Of a stretch of DNA of 64,000 bases, positions 2,310 to 55,627 are shown piece by piece. Below the pieces are notes generated by a model. That model made no database searches, was not told the DNA's origin, and was given only the letters and a program-made list of their open reading frames with translations. How positions within the stretch are numbered: position 1 is the first letter of the stretch; each line of letters begins with the position of its first letter. The translations under genes were made by a program, and so were the position numbers. Source of the stretch: Escherichia coli (GTDB taxonomy: Bacteria > Pseudomonadota > Gammaproteobacteria > Enterobacterales > Enterobacteriaceae); assembly GCF_001677475.2 (NCBI RefSeq), contig NZ_CP015229.1; one strand, 5' to 3'.

Positions 2310-4937
2310 TTATTCTTCTTCTGGCTCGTCGTCAACGTCCACTTCCGGAGCGATTTCATCGTCCCCTTCCGCAGCACTGCCGTCGATGGTATCCAGATCT
2401 TCCTCGTCAACCGGTTCAGCAACACGTTGCAGACCCACTACGTTTTCATCTTCCGCAGTACGGATGAGGATCACGCCCTGGGTGTTACGGCCCACGATGC
2501 TGATTTCTGAAACGCGAGTACGTACCAGCGTACCGGCATCGGTGATCATCATGATCTGGTCGCAATCATCTACCTGCACCGCGCCAACCACTAAACCGTT
2601 ACGTTCGGTGACCTTGATGGAGATAACCCCTTTCGTCGCACGTGACTTGGTTGGGTATTCCGCCACTGCGGTACGTTTACCATAACCGTTCTGCGTTGCG
2701 GTGAGGATTGCGCCATCGCCACGAGGCACGATCAGAGAGACGACTTTATCGCCTTCGCCTAAGCGAATACCGCGCACACCTGTGGTATTGCAGCCCATCG
2801 CACGGACAGAAGACTCTTTAAAGCGCACCACTTTACCTTCGGCGGAGAACAGCATTACTTCGTCTTCGCCACTGGTCAGGTCAACGCCGATCAGCTCATC
2901 GCCTTCAACCAGCTTGATCGCCACTTTACCGGCGGTACGCAGACGGTTGAATTCGGTGAGGACGGTTTTCTTCACAGTACCGTTAGCCGTCGCCATGAAG
3001 ACTTTCACGCCTTCTTCAAACTCGGTCACTGGCAGGATCGCGGTGATACGTTCGTCCTGCTCCAGGGGCAGCAGGTTGACGATCGGACGACCACGTGCAC
3101 CACGAGAGGCTTCCGGCAACTGATAGACTTTCATCGAATAGACACGGCCACGGCTGGAGAAGCACAGGATATGGTCGTGGGTGTTCGCCACCAGCAGTCG
3201 GTCGATAAAGTCTTCTTCTTTAATACGTGCGGCAGATTTACCTTTCCCGCCACGACGCTGCGCTTCGTATTCCGAAAGCGGCTGGTACTTCACGTAGCCC
3301 TGGTGAGAGAGCGTCACGACCACATCTTCCTGAGTGATCAGATCTTCCAGGTTGATGTCTGCGCTGTTGGCAGTGATTTCAGTACGACGTTTGTCGCCGA
3401 ACTGTTCACGAACCAGTTCCAGCTCTTCGCGGATCACTTCCATCAGACGATCGGCGCTACCCAGAATACGCAGCAGTTCCGCGATCTGATCCAGCAGCTC
3501 TTTGTATTCATCGAGCAGTTTTTCGTGCTCAAGGCCGGTCAGTTTCTGCAAACGCAGATCCAGAATTGCCTGAGCTTGCTGTTCGGTCAGGTAGTACAGA
3601 CCGTCACGCACGCCGAACTCTGGCTCCAGCCATTCCGGACGCGCAGCATCGTCACCCGCACGCTCCAGCATCGCGGCAACGTTGCCCAGCTGCCACGGAT
3701 TAGCAACCAGCGCGGTTTTCGCTTCTGCAGGCGTCGGCGCATGACGGATCAGTTCAATGATCGGGTCGATGTTCGCCAGTGCTACGGCTAATGCTTCAAG
3801 GATATGAGCACGATCGCGGGCTTTACGCAGTTCGAAAATGGTACGACGGGTCACCACTTCGCGACGGTGACGGACAAACGCAGCGATAATGTCTTTCAGG
3901 TTCATGATCTTCGGCTGACCATGGTGCAATGCCACCATGTTGATACCGAAAGAAACCTGCAACTGGGTCTGGGAGTAGAGGTTGTTGAGCACCACTTCAC
4001 CGACCGCATCGCGTTTAACTTCAATCACGATGCGCATACCGTCTTTGTCAGACTCGTCACGCAGCGCGCTGATGCCTTCCACGCGTTTTTCTTTTACCAG
4101 TTCCGCAATCTTCTCGATCAGGCGCGCTTTGTTCACCTGATACGGAATTTCGTGGACGATAATGGTTTCACGCCCGGTTTTGGCGTCAACCTCCACTTCA
4201 GCACGGGCGCGGATATATACCTTGCCGCGACCGGTACGGTAAGCTTCTTCAATACCGCGACGACCGTTAATGATTGCCGCCGTCGGGAAGTCCGGCCCCG
4301 GGATGTGTTCCATCAGCCCTTCAATGCTGATGTCTTCATCATCGATATACGCCAGACAACCGTTGATGACTTCCGTCAGGTTGTGCGGCGGGATGTTGGT
4401 TGCCATACCTACGGCGATACCGGAAGAACCGTTCACCAGCAGGTTAGGAATTTTGGTTGGCATGACGTCGGGAATTTTTTCCGTGCCGTCATAGTTATCA
4501 ACGAAATCGACCGTCTCTTTTTCGAGATCGGCCATCAGTTCATGGGCAATTTTCGCCAGACGGATTTCCGTATAACGCATTGCCGCCGCAGAGTCGCCGT
4601 CGATGGAACCGAAGTTACCCTGACCGTCTACCAGCATGTAACGCAGCGAGAATGGCTGCGCCATACGGACGATCGTGTCATAAACCGCCGAGTCACCATG
4701 GGGATGGTATTTACCGATTACGTCACCAACGACACGGGCAGATTTTTTATAGGCTTTGTTCCAGTCATTGCCTAGTACGTTCATGGCGTAAAGTACGCGA
4801 CGGTGTACCGGCTTCAGGCCATCTCGGACATCTGGCAGCGCACGGCCAACAATGACCGACATCGCATAATCCAGATAGGAGCTCTTCAGCTCTTCCTCAA
4901 TGTTGACCGGTGTAATTTCTCTCGCAAGGTCGCTCAT
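2310..4937 (-). CDS. gyrA: DNA gyrase subunit A
   Basis: 875-aa ORF; N-terminus [47 protein letters not shown], active-site Tyr region and acidic C-terminal tail. Confidence 0.97.
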
Positions 4938-5083: not shown

Positions 5084-5806
5084 ATGAATGCCGAAAAATC
5101 GCCGGTAAACCATAACGTAGACCACGAAGAGATCGCTAAATTTGAAGCCGTCGCCTCCCGCTGGTGGGATCTTGAAGGTGAGTTCAAACCGCTGCACCGC
5201 ATTAACCCGCTGCGTCTGGGCTATATTGCCGAGCGTGCTGGCGGTTTATTTGGCAAAAAGGTGCTCGATGTCGGTTGTGGCGGCGGCATTCTGGCCGAGA
5301 GTATGGCGCGCGAAGGCGCGACGGTGACCGGTCTGGATATGGGCTTTGAGCCATTGCAGGTGGCGAAACTGCACGCACTGGAAAGCGGCATTCAGGTAGA
5401 TTACGTGCAGGAAACCGTGGAAGAGCACGCGGTAAAACATGCCGGGCAATATGATGTGGTGACCTGCATGGAGATGCTGGAGCACGTCCCCGATCCGCAG
5501 TCAGTGGTCAGAGCCTGTGCACAACTGGTGAAACCGGGCGGCGATGTCTTTTTCTCGACGCTTAACCGCAACGGCAAGTCATGGCTGATGGCGGTGGTTG
5601 GTGCGGAATATATTTTGCGCATGGTGCCTAAAGGCACGCATGATGTGAAGAAGTTTATTAAACCGGCAGAGCTGCTTGGCTGGGTAGATCAGACAAGCCT
5701 TAAAGAGCGACATATAACCGGGCTACATTACAACCCGATCACTAATTCCTTTAAGCTTGGCCCCGGCGTGGATGTGAACTATATGCTGCACACGCAGAAT
5801 AAATAA
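5084..5806 (+). CDS. ubiG: Bifunctional 3-demethylubiquinone / 2-polyprenyl-6-hydroxyphenol O-methyltransferase
   Basis: SAM-methyltransferase motif [13 protein letters not shown]; start set at ATG 5084 ([11 protein letters not shown]...), giving 240 aa rather than the longer ORF-track start. Confidence 0.93.
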
Positions 5807-25499: not shown

Positions 25500-27986
25500 A
25501 TGAACTCCTTACATCTATTTTGTTTGCATGTTGTTGTAACAATAGTGCCATTGACACTGTTACAAAACAGTTACGCCCGCGAGGTGTTTAATTACAAACT
25601 TTTAGAGTCAGGGGCTTCAGAAAGCGAACTGGAAGCCATTAAAAATTTTGACAAAAATGATGGCCTGGTGCCCGGTAAATATCGGGTCGATGTTTTTATG
25701 AATAATCAACGCATTACACGTAAAGATATTGATTTTGTCGTTGATGATAAAGCGAACAAACTCTTACCTGTGTTAAGCAAAAAAGAGTATATCGCTATGG
25801 GGGTTGCCGATAGCCCCTCCGCGTCATTTGCCACGCTGGCAAATGACGATATCGTGACGAATTTAGAAAATTATATTCCCTTTTCATCAGTGCGCTTTGA
25901 GCAAAGTTCGCTGCGTCTGTATCTGTCAGTTCCACAACTGGCGATGAACAATGCCGCAAACGGGTATATTGATCCGGTTTTATGGGATAATGGATTGCCT
26001 GCGTTGTTTACAAATTACTATTTTAGCGGCTCACATAATTGGCAAGATGGTCGTTCAGATAATAGTTCATATCTTAATCTGAATAATGGTATTAATCTTG
26101 GTCCCTGGCGTTTAAGAAATAACATTAATTATAACGATGGCACCTGGCAAAATATTGATACCTATATCTGGCGAAATATCCCTGCGTTAACCAGCAAACT
26201 CATTCTTGGCGATACCTGGACAGATTCAGCCGTTTTCGATAGTTTCCAGTTTCGCGGGGTAAAACTGGAAAGTAATGAAAATATGCTTCCTTACAGCATG
26301 AGAGGTTTTGCCCCCGTTATTCGCGGCGTTGCCAAAAGCAATGCGCAAGTGACGATTCGACAAAATAATTATATTATTTACCAAAGTACGGTATCCCCAG
26401 GTCCTTTCGAATTACATGATGTCTCTCCTGTTTCTTCTGGTGGGGATATGGAAGTCACGGTAAAAGAATCTGATGGTAGCGAACAAAAATATATTCAGGC
26501 ATCAGCTTCAATTCCTGTCATGCGCCGAGAAGGAGCCATGTCTTATAGTTTATCTGGCGGAGAATATCGCTCATCTGATAACTCCCATGATAAACCCGGC
26601 TTTGCTCAGGCGACGCTGATTTACGGTTTACCTGCAGGCATTACCCTCTATGGTGGCACAATTTTTGCCAGTGATTATCGTTCTGGCGCATTAGGTGCGG
26701 GTGTCGATTTACAACACTTTGGCTCGCTTTCAGCAGACATTACTCGTTCATATAGCCAGACGGTTGATGACAGTTCACAACAAGGACAATCTTACCGATT
26801 GCTTTACTCGAAAAATTTCTCCAGCACTGAAACGAATATCACGCTTGCTGGCTACCGTTATTCCACAGAGAATTTCTATACCTTTAGCGAAGCACAAAAT
26901 AATAAAGAGTATGATGAGGACGACGCGTTTTCATACCGTAACAACTATAACCGCCATCGTCGGTTACAACTTACCATTAATCAGGCGATCCCCTCGTTTG
27001 GTCAGTTCAATATTTCAGGCTATCAACAAGATTATTGGGGACTCGGGGGTAAAGAGCGCAGCCTCAGCGTAGGGTATAGTCATAGTTGGGAAAATGTGAG
27101 TTTTAGCCTAAGTTATTTACTGACACGAATGCCAGACAATAATAAGAACGATCAACAACTCTCACTTTCTGTCAGCGTTCCACTAGGAAAATGGTTACCT
27201 GGTGCGCATGTTAATTACAATAACACCAGCAGTAATAGCGGTCACACTTTAAACAGTGTGGCGCTTAACGGTACTGCGCTGGAAGATAATAATCTCAGTT
27301 ATAGTCTGCAACAAAGTCATGGCGATCAAGGTTATGGTGGCAATACGTCACTCAGTTATCGCTCCAGTAAAGGCGTAATAGGCGCAGGCTGGAACTATAG
27401 TCAGGATCAACGGCAATTAAATTACAATATGCAGGGCGCAATTGTTCTGCATCCGTATGGATTAACCCTTGCCCAGTCTTTAGGTGAATCATCGATTCTG
27501 GTGCGCGCCCCTGATGCCAGTGGGCTGGGCATTAACAGAGGAACGTCGGTTTATACCGACTGGCGAGGATACTCCATCATCCCTTACGCATCAGCATTTC
27601 AGCGCAACCGTATCGCCATCAATACGCAAACCTTGCCGTCAAATGTTGAAATACCGGAACCGGTACAAGAAGTTATTCCTACGGAAGGCGCATTAGTCGT
27701 AGCCAATTTTTCAACGCGATATGGTCAGAAATTACTTTTAACCTTAATGCATAAAGACAAATTTGTTCCCTTTGGAGCCGTAGTCACTGCTGAAGATGAG
27801 CAAATTTCAACCCTCGTTGGGCGAAACGGTGAAACGTATTTATCCGGCGTACAAGCTAATCAAAAATGGCAAGTCAAGTGGGGAAAATCGGCCACTGAAA
27901 GTTGCCAGGTTCATATATCACCAGAACTACTTCAGACACCGCAAAACATGACTAATCTTATTATTGCCACCGCAGCGTGTGATTAA
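25500..27986 (+). CDS. Outer-membrane fimbrial usher
   Basis: About 829 aa from ATG 25500 (ORF-track start 25449 is TTG); usher-sized beta-barrel protein with C-terminal Cys pair. Confidence 0.85.
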   Translation: MNSLHLFCLHVVVTIVPLTLLQNSYAREVFNYKLLESGASESELEAIKNFDKNDGLVPGKYRVDVFMNNQRITRKDIDFVVDDKANKLLPVLSKKEYIAMGVADSPSASFATLANDDIVTNLENYIPFSSVRFEQSSLRLYLSVPQLAMNNAANGYIDPVLWDNGLPALFTNYYFSGSHNWQDGRSDNSSYLNLNNGINLGPWRLRNNINYNDGTWQNIDTYIWRNIPALTSKLILGDTWTDSAVFDSFQFRGVKLESNENMLPYSMRGFAPVIRGVAKSNAQVTIRQNNYIIYQSTVSPGPFELHDVSPVSSGGDMEVTVKESDGSEQKYIQASASIPVMRREGAMSYSLSGGEYRSSDNSHDKPGFAQATLIYGLPAGITLYGGTIFASDYRSGALGAGVDLQHFGSLSADITRSYSQTVDDSSQQGQSYRLLYSKNFSSTETNITLAGYRYSTENFYTFSEAQNNKEYDEDDAFSYRNNYNRHRRLQLTINQAIPSFGQFNISGYQQDYWGLGGKERSLSVGYSHSWENVSFSLSYLLTRMPDNNKNDQQLSLSVSVPLGKWLPGAHVNYNNTSSNSGHTLNSVALNGTALEDNNLSYSLQQSHGDQGYGGNTSLSYRSSKGVIGAGWNYSQDQRQLNYNMQGAIVLHPYGLTLAQSLGESSILVRAPDASGLGINRGTSVYTDWRGYSIIPYASAFQRNRIAINTQTLPSNVEIPEPVQEVIPTEGALVVANFSTRYGQKLLLTLMHKDKFVPFGAVVTAEDEQISTLVGRNGETYLSGVQANQKWQVKWGKSATESCQVHISPELLQTPQNMTNLIIATAACD

Positions 27987-29037: not shown

Positions 29038-29060
29038 TGAACAGCAATAAACCCGCGAAC

Positions 29061-29084
29061 AGGTGCCGGAAGCATCCGGCACCT
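29061..29084. terminator. Bidirectional hairpin between the fimbrial operon and yfaY
   Basis: Perfect inverted repeat aggtgccgga-AGCA-tccggcacct in the 53-bp convergent gap. Confidence 0.5.
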
Positions 29085-29090
29085 GGAATA

Positions 29091-47744: not shown

Positions 47745-48206
47745 TTACGCCTGAATTACCTCGCGTGCCATCCCAATGTGTGGGATACCATCTTCTTCAT
47801 AGACCTCCGTCACAGGGATAAAGCCAAAACTCTGGTAGAAGTTTTGCAGATGCGCCTGCGCCCCGAGGTAAACAGGTTTATCAGGCCAGTGACGCGTACA
47901 TGTTTCGAGTGTTTTATTCATCAGCTGCTGCCCCACTTTTTCGCCACGCAACGCTTCACTAACAATCACCCGACCAATAACGACCGGCTCAAGATCATCA
48001 TCACTTTTCAGAATCCTCGCATACGCCACCAGTTCATCATTTTTCCAACCGAGAATATGGCGATTATCCCCCGTCAAATCATCACCATCGATATCCTGAT
48101 AAGGGCAATTCTGCTCAACAACAAACACCGCGCAACGCAGTTGTAATAAGGCATAAAGCTGGGAAACCGATAATTCAGAGTGATGCAGATCTTGCCATTC
48201 AATCAT
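47745..48206 (-). CDS. elaA: GNAT-family N-acetyltransferase ElaA
   Basis: 153-aa ORF with acetyl-CoA-binding motif. Confidence 0.9.
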   Translation of the reverse strand: MIEWQDLHHSELSVSQLYALLQLRCAVFVVEQNCPYQDIDGDDLTGDNRHILGWKNDELVAYARILKSDDDLEPVVIGRVIVSEALRGEKVGQQLMNKTLETCTRHWPDKPVYLGAQAHLQNFYQSFGFIPVTEVYEEDGIPHIGMAREVIQA

Positions 48207-48270
48207 AATGCTCTCCTTTTAGATGTATGCCTTATACTAGCCGGAATATTTTTTGAAACGTGATGAACTC

Positions 48271-49188
48271 ATGGAATTAATTTTTTTAGGTACTTCAGCC
48301 GGTGTGCCAACCCGTACGCGCAATGTCACGGCAATATTGCTTAACCTGCAACATCCGACCCAGAGCGGACTTTGGTTGTTTGACTGCGGTGAAGGCACCC
48401 AGCATCAGCTACTGCATACCGCCTTTAACCCTGGAAAACTGGATAAGATTTTTATCAGCCACCTTCATGGCGATCATCTCTTTGGTTTACCCGGCTTGCT
48501 GTGCAGTCGTTCTATGTCAGGCATTATCCAACCCTTAACGATTTATGGTCCGCAAGGTATCCGTGAATTTGTGGAGACTGCGCTGCGGATTAGCGGCTCA
48601 TGGACCGATTATCCGCTGGAAATTGTCGAAATTGGCGCTGGCGAAATTCTCGATGATGGCCTGCGCAAAGTAACCGCTTATCCGCTGGAACACCCACTGG
48701 AATGTTATGGCTATCGTATTGAAGAACATGATAAACCGGGTGCATTAAATGCCCAGGCATTAAAAGCTGCTGGCGTGCCGCCTGGCCCACTGTTTCAGGC
48801 ATTAAAAGCGGGCAAAACAATCACGCTGGAAGATGGAAGGCAGATTAACGGCGCAGATTACTTAGCTGCTCCAGTGCCAGGTAAAGCGCTCGCTATTTTC
48901 GGCGATACCGGCCCCTGCGATGCCGCACTTGACCTGGCTAAAGGTGTCGATGTCATGGTGCACGAAGCGACGCTGGATATAACCATGGAAGCCAAAGCCA
49001 ATAGTCGCGGCCATAGCTCTACACGCCAGGCTGCGACACTGGCCCGTGAGGCTGGAGTCGGTAAGCTAATCATTACCCACGTCAGCTCGCGCTATGATGA
49101 CAAAGGTTGTCAGCACCTGTTACGTGAATGTCGGTCAATTTTCCCGGCGACTGAACTGGCGAATGATTTCACCGTGTTTAACGTTTAA
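48271..49188 (+). CDS. rbn: Ribonuclease BN / RNase Z (metallo-beta-lactamase fold)
   Basis: Start [18 protein letters not shown]; HLHGDH zinc-binding motif. Confidence 0.93.
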
Positions 49189-49206
49189 CTCTGCTTACTA
49201 CTAAAA

Positions 49207-49230
49207 ACAGGGCGAAACTTGCCCTGTTAT
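49207..49230 (+). terminator. Hairpin after rbn
   Basis: acagggc-GAAACTT-gccctgt followed by TTAT. Confidence 0.45.
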
Positions 49231-49375
49231 CGCAACCCGCGCTACATATATCCACCCACACGGGAATATTGAGCGATTTTTGATATTTATTCATCTCCTC
49301 ACGCACTATATTCAGAGCAATAAGTTGCCTCTTTTTATCTTCATTCAGCACAACCTTTGCAACTAAAAGGAGCCT

Positions 49376-50599
49376 ATGATGGTTACAGTTGTCAGCAATT
49401 ATTGTCAATTATCTCAAACCCAACTCTGTCAGACATTTGCAGAAAGATTTACTGTGACCGAGGAATTACTGCAGTCTTTAAAAAAAACAGCGTTATCCGG
49501 AGATGAAGAAAGCATTGAGTTACTGCATAATATTGCGTTAGGTTATGATGAATTTGGAAAAAAAGCTGAAGATATTCTTTACCATATTGTTAGAACCCCA
49601 ACAAATGAAACCCTATCGATTATCCGACTTATCAAAAATGCCTGTTTAAAATTATATAATTTGGCACATGCCGCAACCAACTCCCCCCTTAAACCAGCTG
49701 GTCCGGACAATTCAGATGATCTCCTGTTCAAAAAGCTATTCTCCCCGTCAAAATTAATGACAATTATCGGTGATGAAATTCCTCTTATATCAGAAAAACA
49801 GTCGCTTTCAAAGGTACTTTTAAATGATAAGAATAATGAACTGAGCGATGGTACAAACTTCTGGGATAAAAATCGTCAATTAACCACGGATGAAATAGAT
49901 TGCTATCTTCAGAAGATCGCCGCTAATGCAAAAAATACTCAAGTCAATTATCCTACTGGTCTCTACCTCCCCGATTCCAACAGCACTTACCTGGAAATCG
50001 CTCTCAATGATAATATTAAGAGCGATCCATCATGGCCGAAAGCAGTCCAGTTATTCCCCATAAATACTGGCGGACACTGGATATTAGTTTCGCTACAAAA
50101 AATAGTTAATGAAAAAAATAACACACAACAAATAAAATGCGTCATATTCAACTCATTACGTGCACTAGGCCATGATAAAGAAAATTCACTTAAGCGTGTC
50201 ATTAATAGTTTCAATTCTAAATTCATGGGGGAAATGCCGAATAATGATAATATAACAGATCATTTAACTGAACCAGAGATAATATTTTTACATGCCGATC
50301 TTCAGCAATATTTAAGCCAAAGTTGCGGTGCATTTGTGTGCATGGCAGCCAAAGAAGTAATTGAACAAAGGGAAAGCAATTCTGACAGCGCCCCCTATAC
50401 GTTATTAAAAAACTATGCTGACAGATTTAAAAAATATTCAGCAGAAGAGCAGTACGAAATTGATTTTCAACATCGACAGGTAAACAGAAATTGTTATTTA
50501 GATAAATATGGCGATGCAAATATCAATGATTATTATAGAGACTTAGAAATAAAACACTCACAACCCCAAAACAGAGCATCAGGCAAAAGAGTAAGTTAA
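49376..50599 (+). CDS. elaD: Deubiquitinase-like cysteine protease ElaD (ULP/CE clan)
   Basis: AT-rich [22 protein letters not shown]... with catalytic region ...[10 protein letters not shown]... and downstream Cys. Confidence 0.85.
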
Positions 50600-50616
50600 C
50601 ATCATTGTTAGTCAAT

Positions 50617-50648
50617 TCGACCAGTCAGCAAATATGCTGACTGGTCGA
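50617..50648. repeat. Perfect inverted repeat (13-bp arms) downstream of elaD
   Basis: tcgaccagtcagc-AAATAT-gctgactggtcga; no adjacent T-run. Confidence 0.5.
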
Positions 50649-50988
50649 ACATAGTTTGCTAAAAAGTCATCACTGACTGATGCCAGTCACACCATCCGCC
50701 AGTTCAATCTGCGGGTATTTCCAGCGTATCGCGGCACGCGATTGCTGGTCTGTTGATGTAGTGGATTGTTGTTGCTGACTTTTCTTACCCTCAGATTTCT
50801 GCACCCTGTCAATTCAATCTACCAATATATAACATAATTATTTTTTATTTCTCATATGAATTCCTTTTTAAAATAGCGAAGTCACTGAAAAAATATTTTT
50901 TGTATATTCCTACCAACCGTAATAAAATAAACGTTCATAACTCATTATAAATAATAATGAAATAACGCCTTTTATTAATAATTTACAT

Positions 50989-51960
50989 ATGAAAAAAATA
51001 ACACCTCTTTGTTTTATATCATTACTACTATCACTTCCTTTTATTATTTTTTACCAACCCTGGGTCAATGCATTACCGCCAACGCCCCGACACGCAAGTC
51101 CTGAGCAATTAGAAAAAACAGTTCGTTATCTTACACAAACTGTGCATCCCCGTAGTGCCGACAATATTGATAATCTGAAAAGGTCCGCAGAGTATATAAA
51201 AGAGGTCTTTGTCAGTAGCGGTGCCAGAGTTACCGCGCAGGACGTCCCCATTACGGGTGGCCCCTACAAAAACATTGTTGCTGATTATGGTCCTGCCGAT
51301 GGACCGCTGATTATTATTGGTGCGCACTATGACTCTGTCAGTAGTTATGAAAATGATCAATTGACCTATACGCCGGGCGCGGATGATAACGCCAGCGGCG
51401 TGGCAGGATTACTCGAACTGGCACGTTTGTTACAGCAGCAAGCACCGAAAACTGGCGTGCAGCTGGTCGCCTATGCGTCGGAAGAACCGCCCTTCTTTCG
51501 TAGCGATGAAATGGGGAGCGCGGTACATGCAGCTTCGCTTGAGCGTCCAGTGAGATTAATGATAGCGCTGGAGATGATTGGCTATTACGACTCTGCGCCT
51601 GGTAGTCAGGATTACCCTTACCCGGCAATGTCCTGGCTTTATCCCGATCGGGGAGACTTTATTGCCGTGGTCGGCAGAATGCAGGATATCAACGCCGTTC
51701 GTCAGGTAAAAACGGCATTGTTGTCATCCCGGGATTTATCTGTTTATTCTATGAATGCCCCTGGGTTTATTCCCGGTATTGATTTCTCTGATCACCTTAA
51801 TTATTGGCAACACGATATTCCCGCCGTAATGATTACCGACACCGCTTTTTATCGTAATAAACAATACCACTTGCCCGGTGATACCGCAGACAGATTGAAT
51901 TATCAGAAAATGGCTCAGGTAGTGGATGGGGTTATAACTTTGTTATACAACAGTAAATAA
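50989..51960 (+). CDS. yfbL: Secreted M28-family aminopeptidase-like protein
   Basis: 323 aa, signal peptide, GAHYDS and DDNASGVA metal-ligand motifs. Confidence 0.8.
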   Translation: MKKITPLCFISLLLSLPFIIFYQPWVNALPPTPRHASPEQLEKTVRYLTQTVHPRSADNIDNLKRSAEYIKEVFVSSGARVTAQDVPITGGPYKNIVADYGPADGPLIIIGAHYDSVSSYENDQLTYTPGADDNASGVAGLLELARLLQQQAPKTGVQLVAYASEEPPFFRSDEMGSAVHAASLERPVRLMIALEMIGYYDSAPGSQDYPYPAMSWLYPDRGDFIAVVGRMQDINAVRQVKTALLSSRDLSVYSMNAPGFIPGIDFSDHLNYWQHDIPAVMITDTAFYRNKQYHLPGDTADRLNYQKMAQVVDGVITLLYNSK

Positions 51961-52062
51961 TAAAAATTTCTCGAGGCGGGTCCAGAAAAAGCGACATGTA
52001 CATTTTATTTTCCCTCGTCTGTTTTAAGATGCGAAACATGAAATTCAACGGAGGAAAATAAA

Positions 52063-52566
52063 ATGGGAATGATTGGCTATTTTGCAGAAATTGACTCAGA
52101 AAAGATTAACCAACTGCTTGAGTCTACTGAAAAACCCTTAATGGACAATATTCATGACACGCTTTCAGGATTACGCCGACTGGATATTGATAAACGCTGG
52201 GATTTTTTACATTTTGGCCTGACAGGCACCTCTGCTTTTGATCCCGCGAAGAATGATCCGCTGAGTCGTGCCGTGCTTGGTGAACACAGCCTCGAAGATG
52301 GCATAGATGGCTTCCTGGGATTGACCTGGAATCAGGAGTTAGCCGCGACAATCGATCGCCTGGAATCACTGGATCGAAGTGAGCTGCGTAAACAGTTTTC
52401 CATTAAACGACTCAATGAAATGGAGATTTACCCTGGTGTGACCTTTTCAGAAGAGTTAGAGGGGCAGCTCTTTGCTTCGATCATGCTTGATATGGAAAAG
52501 CTGATTAGTGCATATCGACGTATGCTGCGACAAGGGAATCATGCGCTGACGGTTATTGTTGGGTGA
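52063..52566 (+). CDS. yfbM: DUF1877-family protein YfbM
   Basis: 167-aa ORF MGMIGYFAEIDSEKINQLLESTEKPLMDNIHDTL... Confidence 0.8.
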   Translation: MGMIGYFAEIDSEKINQLLESTEKPLMDNIHDTLSGLRRLDIDKRWDFLHFGLTGTSAFDPAKNDPLSRAVLGEHSLEDGIDGFLGLTWNQELAATIDRLESLDRSELRKQFSIKRLNEMEIYPGVTFSEELEGQLFASIMLDMEKLISAYRRMLRQGNHALTVIVG

Positions 52567-52583
52567 TGGGGTCAGGGCACCAT

Positions 52584-52616
52584 AAAAAAACCGCCGAACA
52601 TGTCGGCGGCTTTCTG
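52584..52616. terminator. Bidirectional intrinsic terminator (nuo operon end / yfbM)
   Basis: aaaaaaa-ccgccga-ACATG-tcggcgg-ctttctg; on the minus strand the hairpin is followed by a T7 run directly after the nuoN stop. Confidence 0.65.
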
Positions 52617-52633
52617 ACTTACAAACTGACTGC

Positions 52634-54091
52634 TTACATCAGCGGCATTGCCAACCGCACAATGCTAATCAGCGGTTGCGGCCATACACCCAGCACCAGT
52701 ACCAACAGTGCAGAGATCAGCACCACGATACCGCCCGCGCTGTACTGCCAGTTTGACGGTGCATCGCGACCCGGTTGTTCCGGTGCGTGCAGGTACAGGC
52801 TCACCGCCACGCGCAGGTAGTAGTAGAGGCCGATTGCCGAACCGACAACCACGGCACCCACCAGCCACCACAAGTGTGCCTGGACACCGACCGCCAGCAC
52901 GTAGAACTTACCGATAAAGCCCAGCGTCATCGGGATACCGGCCAGAGACAGCATCATCACCGTCATCACTGCCGCGAGGATCGGACGATGCCAGAACAGA
53001 CCGCGGTAAGAGAACAGGGAATCAGCATCTGGGCCACGATACGGGCTGGACATCAGGCTGACCACGCCGAATGCGCCGAGGCTGCTGAACAGATAACCGG
53101 CCAGGTAAACCCCTACCGCTTCCATCGACATCTCGCCGGTTTGCAGCGCAATCAGCGCCACCAGCAGATAGCCGAGGTGAGAGATAGACGAGTAACCGAG
53201 CAGACGTTTGATGTTGGTCTGGCTCAGCGCCATCAGGTTACCGAAGATGATAGAGGCAAAGGCGATAATCGCCAGCACCACGCGAATCGCTTCGCTGTCA
53301 CCCACCGGTGCGTAGAGGAACAGACGCATCACCACACCGAAGATAGCGATTTTGCTCGCCGTCGCCAGGAAAGTGGAAACCGGCGCAGGCGCGCCCTGGT
53401 ATACGTCTGGCGTCCACAGGTGGAACGGCACCAGAGAGAGTTTGAAGCCGAGGCCAACAATCATCAGGCCGAAACCTGCCAGCAACAGCGGCTCGTTGAG
53501 CATACCGTCGCCGAGGTTTTTACCCAACGCGACAAACGACAGGTCGCCAGACTGCGCATACACCAGCGCCATACCAAACAGCAGGAAAGAAGACGCTGCG
53601 GCAGAGAGAATGGTGTATTTGATACTGGCTTCCAGCGAACGTTTCTGGCGGAAAGCGTAACCGACCAGGCCAAACAGCGGCAAAGAGATCAGTTCGATAC
53701 CGAGGAACAGAGACGCCAGATGGTTGGCATTCGCCAGCAGGATCCCGCCCAGGGCGGCAATTAACACCAACAGGTAGAACTCGTCCTTGTTGTCGTTATA
53801 GCCTTCAAGCCACGGGTAGGCGAAAGTACAGGTGGCGAGGCTCGCCAACAATACCAGCCCGGTGTAAAGCATGGCGAAACCATCAACGCGCATCAGTGGC
53901 GTAACGTCCATAGCGCCCGCCTGGCCGACAAACCAGAGCGAAACCAGCGCCGCGTTAAGCCCAATAACCGAGAGCGTAGCGTTGAGGAAATGATTGCGTC
54001 GCCACGCAATGGAGAGCATCACAACCACCACCGTCAAGCCGACGATCAGCAACGGTAGCAGTGCGATCAGGTTTTGTGGAGTTATTGTCAT
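52634..54091 (-). CDS. nuoN: NADH:quinone oxidoreductase subunit N
   Basis: 485-aa polytopic antiporter-like subunit. Confidence 0.95.
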
Positions 54092-54097
54092 GGCGAT

Positions 54098-55627
54098 TTA
54101 CGGCCTTGTAGTAGTAACGGAATTAACAAACCACTGCTGGATATTGCCAATCGCGGAATGCGAGGTATCCAGAATCGGCTGCGGATAGAAGCCCAGCAGT
54201 ACCAGCAGCACCACCAGCAACAGGATCATAAACAGCTCACGCAGCGACATCCCTGGCAGTTCCTGGCTGGCAATCTGGCTTTTCGCTTTACCGAAGTAAG
54301 CGCGATGCAACATCGCCAGCGAATAAACAGATGCAAAGACCAGCCCAAAGGTAGAGATAACGGTAATCACCGGGACAACCTGGAAGCTGCCGAACAGAAT
54401 CATAAATTCGCCGACGAAGTTACCGGTACCAGGCATCCCAAGCGTTGCCACCGCAAAGAACAGTGACAGTGCTGGCAGCCATTTCATCTTGCTCCACAGA
54501 CCGCCCATCATGCGCATGTCGCGGGTATGGATACGTTCATAAAGCTGACCGCAGAGAATAAACAGACCCGCCGCCGACAAGCCGTGCGCAATCATCTGGA
54601 TTACCGCGCCCTGGTAGGCCAACTGGCTGCCGGTATAGATAGCAATCAGCACGAAGCCCATGTGGGAAACCGAGGTGTAGGCGATCAGACGTTTGATATC
54701 GGTCTGGGCGAAGGCCATCCACGCACCGTAGAAGATGCCGATAACACCCAGCCACATGGCGATTGGCGCGAACTCTGCCGACGCGTTCGGGAACAGCGGC
54801 AGTGAGAAACGCAGCAGACCGTAAGCAGCGGTTTTCAGCAAGATCCCCGCGAGGTCCACGGAACCGGCGGTCGGAGCCTGGGAGTGCGCATCCGGTAGCC
54901 AACCATGCAGCGGCACCACTGGCATTTTGACCGCGAAGGCGATGAAGAAGCCCAGCATCAACAGATATTCCACACCACTGGACATTGGCGTATTCAACAG
55001 CTCTTCATAGTTGAAGGTCCAGACGCCGGTCGCATTGTAGTGAACAAAAACCAGCGCCAGGATGGCGATCAACATCACCAGACCACTCGCCTGGGTGTAA
55101 ATGAAGAACTTGGTTGCCGCCGTGATACGCGTTTTACCGTCAGAGGCTTTATGCCCCCACAGTGCGATCAGGAAGTACATCGGCACCAGCATCATTTCCC
55201 AGAAGAAGAAGAACAGGAACATGTCGATGGCAAGGAACACGCCGATAACACCGCCCAGGATCCACATCAGGTTGAGGTGGAAGAAGCCCTGATATTTTTC
55301 GATCTCTTTCCACGAACAGAGTACCGCCAGCACACCGAGCAGACCGGTCAGCACGACCATCAGCAACGACAGCCCGTCAATGGCGAGATGAATAGAGATA
55401 CCAAAACGCGGGATCCACGGCATGTCGAATTCAGACTGCCACTGCGGGATTCCGGCGGATTGCGTCAGTGAATAACCGCCCTGCAACCACAGTTGCAGCG
55501 ACAGCGCCAGCGTCAATCCCATGGTGATCAGCGCGATCCAGCGCGGCACCTTGACGCCAAAGCGTTCGGTCTGCCAGCACAGGAAGCCGCCAATAAAGGG
55601 GATTAGTATTAACCAGGGTAATAACAT
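54098..55627 (-). CDS. nuoM: NADH:quinone oxidoreductase subunit M
   Basis: 509-aa antiporter-like subunit. Confidence 0.95.
   Translation of the reverse strand: MLLPWLILIPFIGGFLCWQTERFGVKVPRWIALITMGLTLALSLQLWLQGGYSLTQSAGIPQWQSEFDMPWIPRFGISIHLAIDGLSLLMVVLTGLLGVLAVLCSWKEIEKYQGFFHLNLMWILGGVIGVFLAIDMFLFFFFWEMMLVPMYFLIALWGHKASDGKTRITAATKFFIYTQASGLVMLIAILALVFVHYNATGVWTFNYEELLNTPMSSGVEYLLMLGFFIAFAVKMPVVPLHGWLPDAHSQAPTAGSVDLAGILLKTAAYGLLRFSLPLFPNASAEFAPIAMWLGVIGIFYGAWMAFAQTDIKRLIAYTSVSHMGFVLIAIYTGSQLAYQGAVIQMIAHGLSAAGLFILCGQLYERIHTRDMRMMGGLWSKMKWLPALSLFFAVATLGMPGTGNFVGEFMILFGSFQVVPVITVISTFGLVFASVYSLAMLHRAYFGKAKSQIASQELPGMSLRELFMILLLVVLLVLLGFYPQPILDTSHSAIGNIQQWFVNSVTTTRP

Follow-up and report, generated by a model that had tools for sequence, protein, structure and literature searches.

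What the perfect palindrome behind elaD is, and whether it has anything to do with the absence of yfbK beside it, is the question raised by this E. coli locus. In the window, that is the whole stretch of 64,000 nucleotides which was analysed, elaD (49376-50599, + strand, 407 codons) is an intact open reading frame whose product contains the Pfam domains ElaD_SseL-like_N, ElaD-SseL-like_C and Peptidase_C48; the homologous regions used for comparison also bear the annotation elaD. It is followed co-directionally, 389 bp away, by yfbL (50989-51960, + strand), which is intact and codes for an M28 metallopeptidase according to Pfam and annotation. The DH5alpha locus (L002) was used as the K-12 reference and MG1655 for genome coordinates. 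K-12 possesses the order rbn, elaD, yfbK, yfbL, yfbM, yfbN, yfbO, yfbP and nuoN, with yfbK (1,728 bp) on the minus strand. A sequence-only reading of the window had placed yfbK between elaD and yfbL of K-12 and had taken it to be absent here. This placement is correct, and the 389-bp gap confirms that yfbK is missing from the window as a gene. Alignment with K-12 revealed that the two arrangements differ, yfbK being kept in K-12, and that the palindrome itself is the same in both. The rbn-elaD part of the window is about 96% identical to K-12. The best complete-genome match of the locus (48000-54200) was ST2747, with 98.6% identity over 6.2 kb; no genome in the collection was identical, and the best match of the ElaD protein of the window reached 97%. 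The locus probably represents a somewhat divergent E. coli lineage.

The palindrome occupies positions 50616-50649, 16 nt beyond the stop codon of elaD (TAA, 50597-50599). It is composed of two arms of 15 nt each (50616-50630 and 50635-50649), which are 100% complementary and enclose a loop of 4 nt; CGACC/GGTCG forms the stem base. The perfect 13-bp arms reported earlier (50617-50629 and 50636-50648, with AAATAT as the loop) are real and are nested inside these longer arms. Considered as duplex DNA, the element is a 34-bp palindrome in which 16 of the 17 positions of each half are symmetric. In a hairpin census it was the longest perfect hairpin of the 64-kb window, and in 30 dinucleotide-preserving shuffles of the window the longest perfect arms measured 8-13 bp against the real 15 bp, which places the palindrome well beyond chance. 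Further perfect hairpins in the census were located at 25822-25848 (12-bp arms, 3-nt loop) and 29060-29085 (11-bp arms, 4-nt loop). The predicted RNA fold has 15-16 pairs. Its energy for the + strand is -26.9 kcal/mol (z-score against shuffles -8.7), and for the - strand -29.1 kcal/mol (z-score -9.5). A stem of 15-16 perfect pairs is longer than expected for a typical terminator-like stem.

The missing T-run described in the sequence-only reading was borne out on both strands, where only 2-4 T were found within the first 8 nt. A terminator consensus scan made no call at the palindrome, and its d'Aubenton-Carafa-type tail scores stayed at 0.2-1.9, whereas the classic terminator at 1554-1587 of the same window scored 3.8 and 4.5. 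Thus, of the features of an intrinsic terminator, the palindrome has the GC-rich stem-loop and lacks both the U-tract after it and the A-tract before it; a canonical intrinsic terminator was rejected because the scan and the tail scores failed on the U-tract. It does possess one feature of the class of Dar & Sorek, a stable stem-loop with no U-rich sequence after it. An Rfam scan of 49000-52700 (E<=10) returned sub-threshold chance matches only, such as a microRNA model lying over the hairpin. On these features, we propose that the palindrome serves as the 3'-end stem-loop of elaD, as well as of the convergent yfbK where that gene is present.

The space between elaD and yfbL is not uniform. 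About 186 of its 389 bases (50670-50855) are yfbK remnants, in three pieces which share one frame on the minus strand. The earlier description of about 340 bp of non-coding, partly AT-rich DNA needs correction for 50670-50855, which cannot be called simply non-coding. Positions 50600-50709 align to the K-12 elaD-yfbK spacer and the final 40 nt of yfbK. The first remnant (50670-50709) represents the last 13 codons and the stop codon, IELADGVTGISQ followed by the stop, with a tail of K-12 type and 39/40 identity to L002 3405-3444. The second (50709-50729) is a 21-nt internal island, IRWKYPQ, which is in frame and matches L002 3657-3677 at 20/21 positions. The third (50730-50855) corresponds to the 5' end of the gene and shows about 71-75% identity to L002 5001-5132. 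The ancestral yfbK ATG is situated at 50853-50855, and two stop codons lie in the former signal-peptide region; read from this ATG, the minus-strand frame gives MRNKK, a stop, LCYILVD, a second stop, and then IDRVQKSEGKKSQQQQSTTSTDQQSRAAIRWKYPQIELADGVTGISQ up to the final stop. The deletion junctions are at 50709/50710 and 50729/50730, with microhomology of at most 1 nt. The alignment is read as two in-frame deletions, of 213 and 1,323 bp, which took out the body of yfbK and left a 186-bp pseudogene, and the stop codons of the signal-peptide region are read as gained after them. A GTG-started 44-codon open reading frame on the minus strand (50670-50804) consists of the fused remnants and is annotated by PGAP as 'hypothetical protein' in ST2747. 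It showed no Pfam match and is probably no real gene, and annotators may note that this 44-codon 'hypothetical protein' of some genomes is a yfbK remnant. The AT-rich part of the spacer (50856-50988, GC about 28%) aligns to the K-12 yfbK-yfbL spacer and represents the former divergent yfbK/yfbL promoter region, which is now the upstream region of yfbL alone.

The yfbK-less allele is not peculiar to the window. Of the 5,426 complete E. coli genomes, 2,577 matched a 1.2-kb query spanning the junctions as one unbroken alignment covering 80% or more of the query, O157:H7 and B-derived strains among them. The allele is common, old and segregating, in about half of E. coli genomes. An independent case was found in L009 ('E. 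coli' SCPM-O-B-8794, representative of a separate GTDB species), which carries its own internal yfbK deletion at 5600-5760. There the sequence corresponding to K-12 L002 3422-3545 is kept and resumes at about 5014. Since the junctions differ and the L009 lineage never had elaD, yfbK must have been lost more than once in Escherichia.

The alignment with K-12 disposes of the idea, also raised in the sequence-only reading, that the palindrome is a scar of the indel. The identical 34 nt are present in K-12 (L002 3351-3384) next to an intact yfbK, 16 nt past the elaD stop and 20 nt from the yfbK stop, within the 70-nt spacer of the two convergent genes; the derived MG1655 position is 2,383,941-2,383,974. 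It follows that the palindrome is older than the yfbK loss and unconnected with it. Only proximity speaks for a scar, the left junction being 60 nt away. Against it stand the identical palindrome in K-12 and other genomes that keep yfbK, as well as in the 28 yfbK-bearing contigs among 73 classifiable metagenome contigs, and the real junctions at 50709/50710 and 50729/50730, 60-80 nt to the right of the palindrome. The scar reading is refuted.

The distribution of the palindrome was analyzed to see where else it occurs. The window contains no second copy, even at a tolerance of 3 mismatches. In a sensitive search it was present in 4,199 of the 5,426 complete E. coli genomes, at one locus per genome. 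The median of two 'places' per genome is, we infer, one site matched on both strands, as was seen directly for single sites in the window search and the metagenome scan. The palindrome was found in 85 metagenome stretches; 80 of these were fetched, and the elaD 3' end was on one side in all 80. The loop AAATAT was invariant in all fetched contigs, and the scan demanded exact arms, which makes it uninformative on arm variation. Among the 80 contigs, 45 had the deletion junction, 28 had yfbK and 7 were too short for classing. No match to the palindrome was obtained in viral contigs and phages, and the plasmid matches to the palindrome or elaD cassette amounted to six records, which are chromosome-sized or contain chromosomal fragments. 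A REP/BIME or other dispersed repeat family was rejected, as there is one elaD-linked locus per genome and no Rfam match. One copy per genome, always behind elaD, argues against any repeat family, so the genome-wide search which the sequence-only reading had proposed ended, over 5,426 genomes, in a single-copy, locus-specific element. Among the genomes sampled, three arm variants were observed (C50629T, G50639A and G50644A), all of them single transitions and each uncompensated. The palindrome was no less polymorphic than its flanks. Diversity was too low for any covariation of the stem to show, and conservation does not discriminate between the readings of the palindrome.

The sequence to the right of the deletion has a history of its own. 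A hyperdivergent patch (50730-51050) is 67-74% identical to every sampled allele with yfbK, compared with 95-99% in its flanks; yfbL from about 51110 onward is again 95-99% identical to the yfbK-bearing alleles. When the 321-bp segment right of the junction was compared across genomes, 85-99% identity was found in the yfbK-less class (2,796 genomes) and 71.6-74% in the yfbK-bearing class (2,501). The 5,297 genomes were strictly bimodal, and 60 records drawn at points along the ranking contained no intermediate identities. To the left of the junction, the yfbK remnants depart from K-12 at only 2 of 61 positions, so relaxed constraint alone cannot account for a patch diverged by about 28%. This pattern suggests that the yfbK deletion arose on a divergent allele or together with its import. 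It is possible that a divergent allele was imported by illegitimate recombination or that the patch represents an ancient allele class; a comparison with E. albertii and two other Escherichia species yielded no donor.

The palindrome belongs to a cassette. The approximate limits of the elaD cassette in the window are 49192-50697 (about 1.5 kb), including elaD, the palindrome and the final ~9 codons of the K-12-type yfbK. Its GC content is 34-40%, against about 50% or more in the flanks. The cassette was found in K-12, O157 and window-type genomes and was not found in B2 E. coli, E. albertii and Escherichia sp. MOD1-EC7003. Homology to the elaD-less loci ends 3 nt past the rbn stop (window 49191) and restarts at about 3427-3432 of K-12 L002. 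In B2-type E. coli (L004), rbn is followed by the convergent yfbK with neither elaD nor palindrome, and homology restarts about 26 nt inside the 3' end of yfbK, so that yfbK ends with different codons in the two types. The elaD-less order of B2, again with no palindrome, is shared by Escherichia sp. MOD1-EC7003 (L008) and E. albertii (L010), and the divergent 'E. coli' L009 is devoid of elaD and palindrome and has only a yfbK remnant. As the elaD-less lineages also lack the palindrome, it came with the elaD cassette. The rbn-yfbK spacer of B2 E. coli, L008 and L009 contains a different strong hairpin, CTGTTTGCC...GGCAAACAG, with no adjacent U-run; the spacer of E. albertii differs from these in sequence.

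The probable course of events is that a low-GC cassette of about 1.5 kb replaced the ancestral spacer of the convergent rbn and yfbK, bringing elaD with the sequence upstream of it, together with the palindrome and a new tail for yfbK. The yfbK deletion would then be a separate, later event on an elaD-bearing background, and the cassette-type tail of the yfbK remnant in the window supports this order. The variable presence of elaD and its probable horizontal acquisition have been described before (PMC1847702; PMC12575377). A phage origin of the cassette found no phage match, and plasmid matches were chromosomal only. In a search for more distant ElaD relatives, whose downstream hairpins might be compared, the best 120 proteins were all Escherichia sequences of 90% identity or more. 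An inverted repeat of 30 nt with 77% complementarity (49143-49172 and 50686-50715; core GAACTGGCG / CGCCAGTTC) brackets the cassette, joining the rbn 3' end with the yfbK 3' end. Since part of its right arm runs across a deletion junction, the full length of the match is at least in part a coincidence; the core may reflect microhomology that served in the insertion of the cassette. At the left cassette edge, after rbn, another predicted hairpin is situated (49206-49228). On the + strand an A-run precedes it and no T-run follows, the T-run being on the - strand only, and it looks like a terminator for leftward transcription alone, antisense to elaD.

Inactivated elaD is frequent among natural genomes. 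The gene is frameshifted in ST2747, CFSAN018748, AUSMDU00014361 and 2015-01-2097, contains internal stops in AR_0369 and KR2009, and is interrupted by IS1 in PCP06171, while a single deletion in EC67 begins at the 5' end of elaD and stops shortly before yfbL. The elaD of the window is free of such lesions.

Changes were also observed on the other side of the locus. Close relatives of YfbL are confined to Escherichia. An extra 326-bp deletion in yfbL (window 51251-51576, compared with L003) was found in O157:H7 and in many yfbK-less strains, including the B-derived BLK16, and the deleted yfbL is annotated as a frameshifted hypothetical protein. The genes yfbN, yfbO and yfbP, which fill about 2.6 kb between yfbM and nuoN in K-12, are missing in the window, ST2747, O157:H7 and B2 strains. 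The yfbM-nuoN spacer of the window (52567-52633) is only 67 bp long and carries a classic bidirectional terminator, AAAAAAACCGCCGAACATGTCGGCGGCTTTCTG. This terminator of the convergent yfbM and nuoN (about 52587-52612) displays the textbook succession of A-tract, stem and U-tract, and the palindrome has no such tracts. Altogether, the locus from rbn to nuoN is a small, well-resolved case of step-wise gain and decay, in which the elaD cassette was gained, yfbK was deleted, yfbL was truncated in O157 and B-type genomes, and yfbN, yfbO and yfbP occur only in K-12-like genomes.

What the palindrome does was considered at the level of the elaD transcript. The favoured reading, to which we give a probability of roughly 0.55, is that it acts as a transcript-end stem-loop lacking a U-tract, with a protective or pausing role, and that termination itself is Rho-dependent. 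A Rho-dependent structure was one of the options offered in the sequence-only reading, and it is favoured here on sequence features combined with published K-12 Rho-region data. RNA polymerase would read through the hairpin, possibly pausing there; Rho would then terminate transcription on the untranslated, G-poor RNA 3' of the palindrome, and 3'-5' exonucleases would trim the RNA back to the hairpin, which would become the stable end of the mRNA. In K-12 the palindrome lies midway between the convergent elaD and yfbK stops, so it could fold in both transcripts. In the window, elaD and yfbL are co-directional, and hairpin and Rho together would also insulate yfbL from elaD read-through.

The downstream RNA speaks for this on the + strand and against it on the - strand. 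In the 80 nt past the palindrome, the + strand contains 28% C and 19% G, and the - strand, with 15% C and 20% G, has no C>G enrichment. Further along, between 50780 and 50988, G falls to 4-9% on the + strand, and the sequence is untranslated up to yfbL. By its composition, the + strand RNA past the palindrome would make a good Rho substrate. In E. coli, Rho-dependent transcripts end just past stable stem-loops which have no U-tracts (PMC6061677). Such stem-loops guard the transcripts against PNPase and RNase II, and a mild C>G enrichment is found downstream of them (PMC6061677).

Published K-12 data place Rho at this very locus. Rho termination regions on the + strand have been reported at 2,382,642 (after rbn), 2,383,800 (inside elaD) and 2,386,323 (inside yfbL), and on the - strand at 2,382,764, antisense to elaD and near its 5' end (PMC7815308). 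From these regions, Rho is active at the K-12 elaD locus (PMC7815308). The region at +2,383,800 lies 124 nt before the elaD stop and is 141 nt ahead of the palindrome instead of behind it, which counts against the favoured reading. So does the - strand region near the elaD 5' end, as transcription running leftward could cross the hairpin. The + strand region at 2,382,642 is just downstream of rbn, and rbn may therefore also rely on a hairpin together with Rho. In MG1655 Term-seq under three growth conditions, no curated 3' end falls within 2,383,700-2,384,099, an interval which includes the palindrome (PMC7815308); this too counts against it, although low expression of elaD and yfbK could be behind the result.

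Other explanations of the palindrome were weighed against a stem-loop working with Rho. It is possible, although rather unlikely, that the palindrome is a weak bidirectional intrinsic terminator or a site of RNA-polymerase collision for the convergent elaD and yfbK, stopping transcription with no need of Rho. Its position, centred in the 70-nt K-12 spacer of the convergent stop codons, would suit such a site, and so would a hairpin which folds equally well on either strand and is followed by mostly A/U bases that would form a weak RNA:DNA hybrid. A stem-loop is also reportedly needed for positioned collisions at bidirectional terminators (bioRxiv 10.1101/2022.10.23.513370). However, there is neither a U-tract nor an A-tract on either side, the K-12 tables hold no mapped 3' end at the palindrome, and collisions cannot contribute in the window, where the convergent partner is gone. 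A little more doubtful is the view of the palindrome as a functionless passenger, for example a terminator of the donor brought in with the elaD cassette, whose arms have stayed perfect only through the youth of the cassette and the low diversity of E. coli. This accords with a palindrome no more conserved than its flanks, with three arm substitutions left uncompensated in natural genomes, with an elaD which is often a pseudogene, through frameshifts, internal stops or an IS1 insertion, and with the decay of the whole island. Yet a perfect 15-bp stem in a transcribed 3' region folds and blocks exonucleases whether or not it is selected, and B2 and two other Escherichia lineages, which have no elaD, also possess a strong hairpin at the equivalent place, as if one were generally retained between the convergent genes.

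An action on double-stranded DNA, as the operator of a dimeric regulator or as a recombination or cruciform site used in the acquisition of the elaD cassette, is very unlikely. Its appeal comes from the near-complete symmetry of the 34-bp duplex (16 of 17 positions per half) and from the location about 45 nt from the right cassette edge. A length of 34 bp exceeds that of typical operators, though; searches of the window and of the opposite cassette edge gave no second related site, phages and genuine plasmids had no match, and no recombinase gene is adjacent. For the protein-binding site offered in the sequence-only reading, support was found nowhere. The sole published binding peak nearby, that of LldR in gSELEX, is inside yfbK about 1.2 kb off (PMC10272880), and an LldR site at the palindrome was rejected for that reason. 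A FadR/LldR-like box, TGGTCnGACCA, at the ends of the arms was likewise rejected with about 9/14 matches by eye. An integron attC-like site was also rejected by eye, as there are no R''/R' core sites, the stem is perfect and the cassette edge lies about 45 nt away. That the palindrome is specifically the cis site of cassette delivery (e.g. for a hairpin-recognising recombinase) or an operator for a regulator of elaD is still more improbable. If a role at the DNA level were true, the palindrome would be the sign of a kind of small chromosomal gene cassette not recognised before in Escherichia.

The stem-loop reading has a plainer meaning. The palindrome would be the ordinary 3' hairpin of elaD, a probably horizontally acquired deubiquitinase gene of host-interaction interest, with no link to the missing yfbK. 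For elaD expression constructs, the hairpin and the apparent reliance on Rho would be practical design details.

Among known systems, the closest likeness is to the stem-loops of Dar & Sorek (PMC6061677). With these the palindrome shares a stable stem-loop just past the stop codon that is neither preceded by an A-tract nor followed by a U-rich one, a mild C>G enrichment downstream, on the elaD strand only, and K-12 Rho regions at the locus. It differs from them in having no mapped steady-state 3' end and in that the nearest Rho coordinate is upstream. Bidirectional intrinsic terminators, such as that between yfbM and nuoN, resemble it in that one hairpin is centred between convergent stops in K-12 and folds both ways; unlike them, the palindrome has no A-tract and no U-tract, and in the window one of the convergent genes is gone. 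REP elements, described as dual terminator-stabilisers of 3'UTRs (bioRxiv 10.64898/2026.03.23.713779), share with it an extragenic palindrome in the 3' untranslated region, the convergent-gene setting, and the proposed dual role in partial Rho-dependent attenuation and protection from 3' decay. The palindrome is distinguished from REP by its one copy per genome behind elaD and by a perfect stem in place of the mismatches characteristic of REP. Taken with these systems, the palindrome is an unremarkable further case of a known kind of stem-loop.
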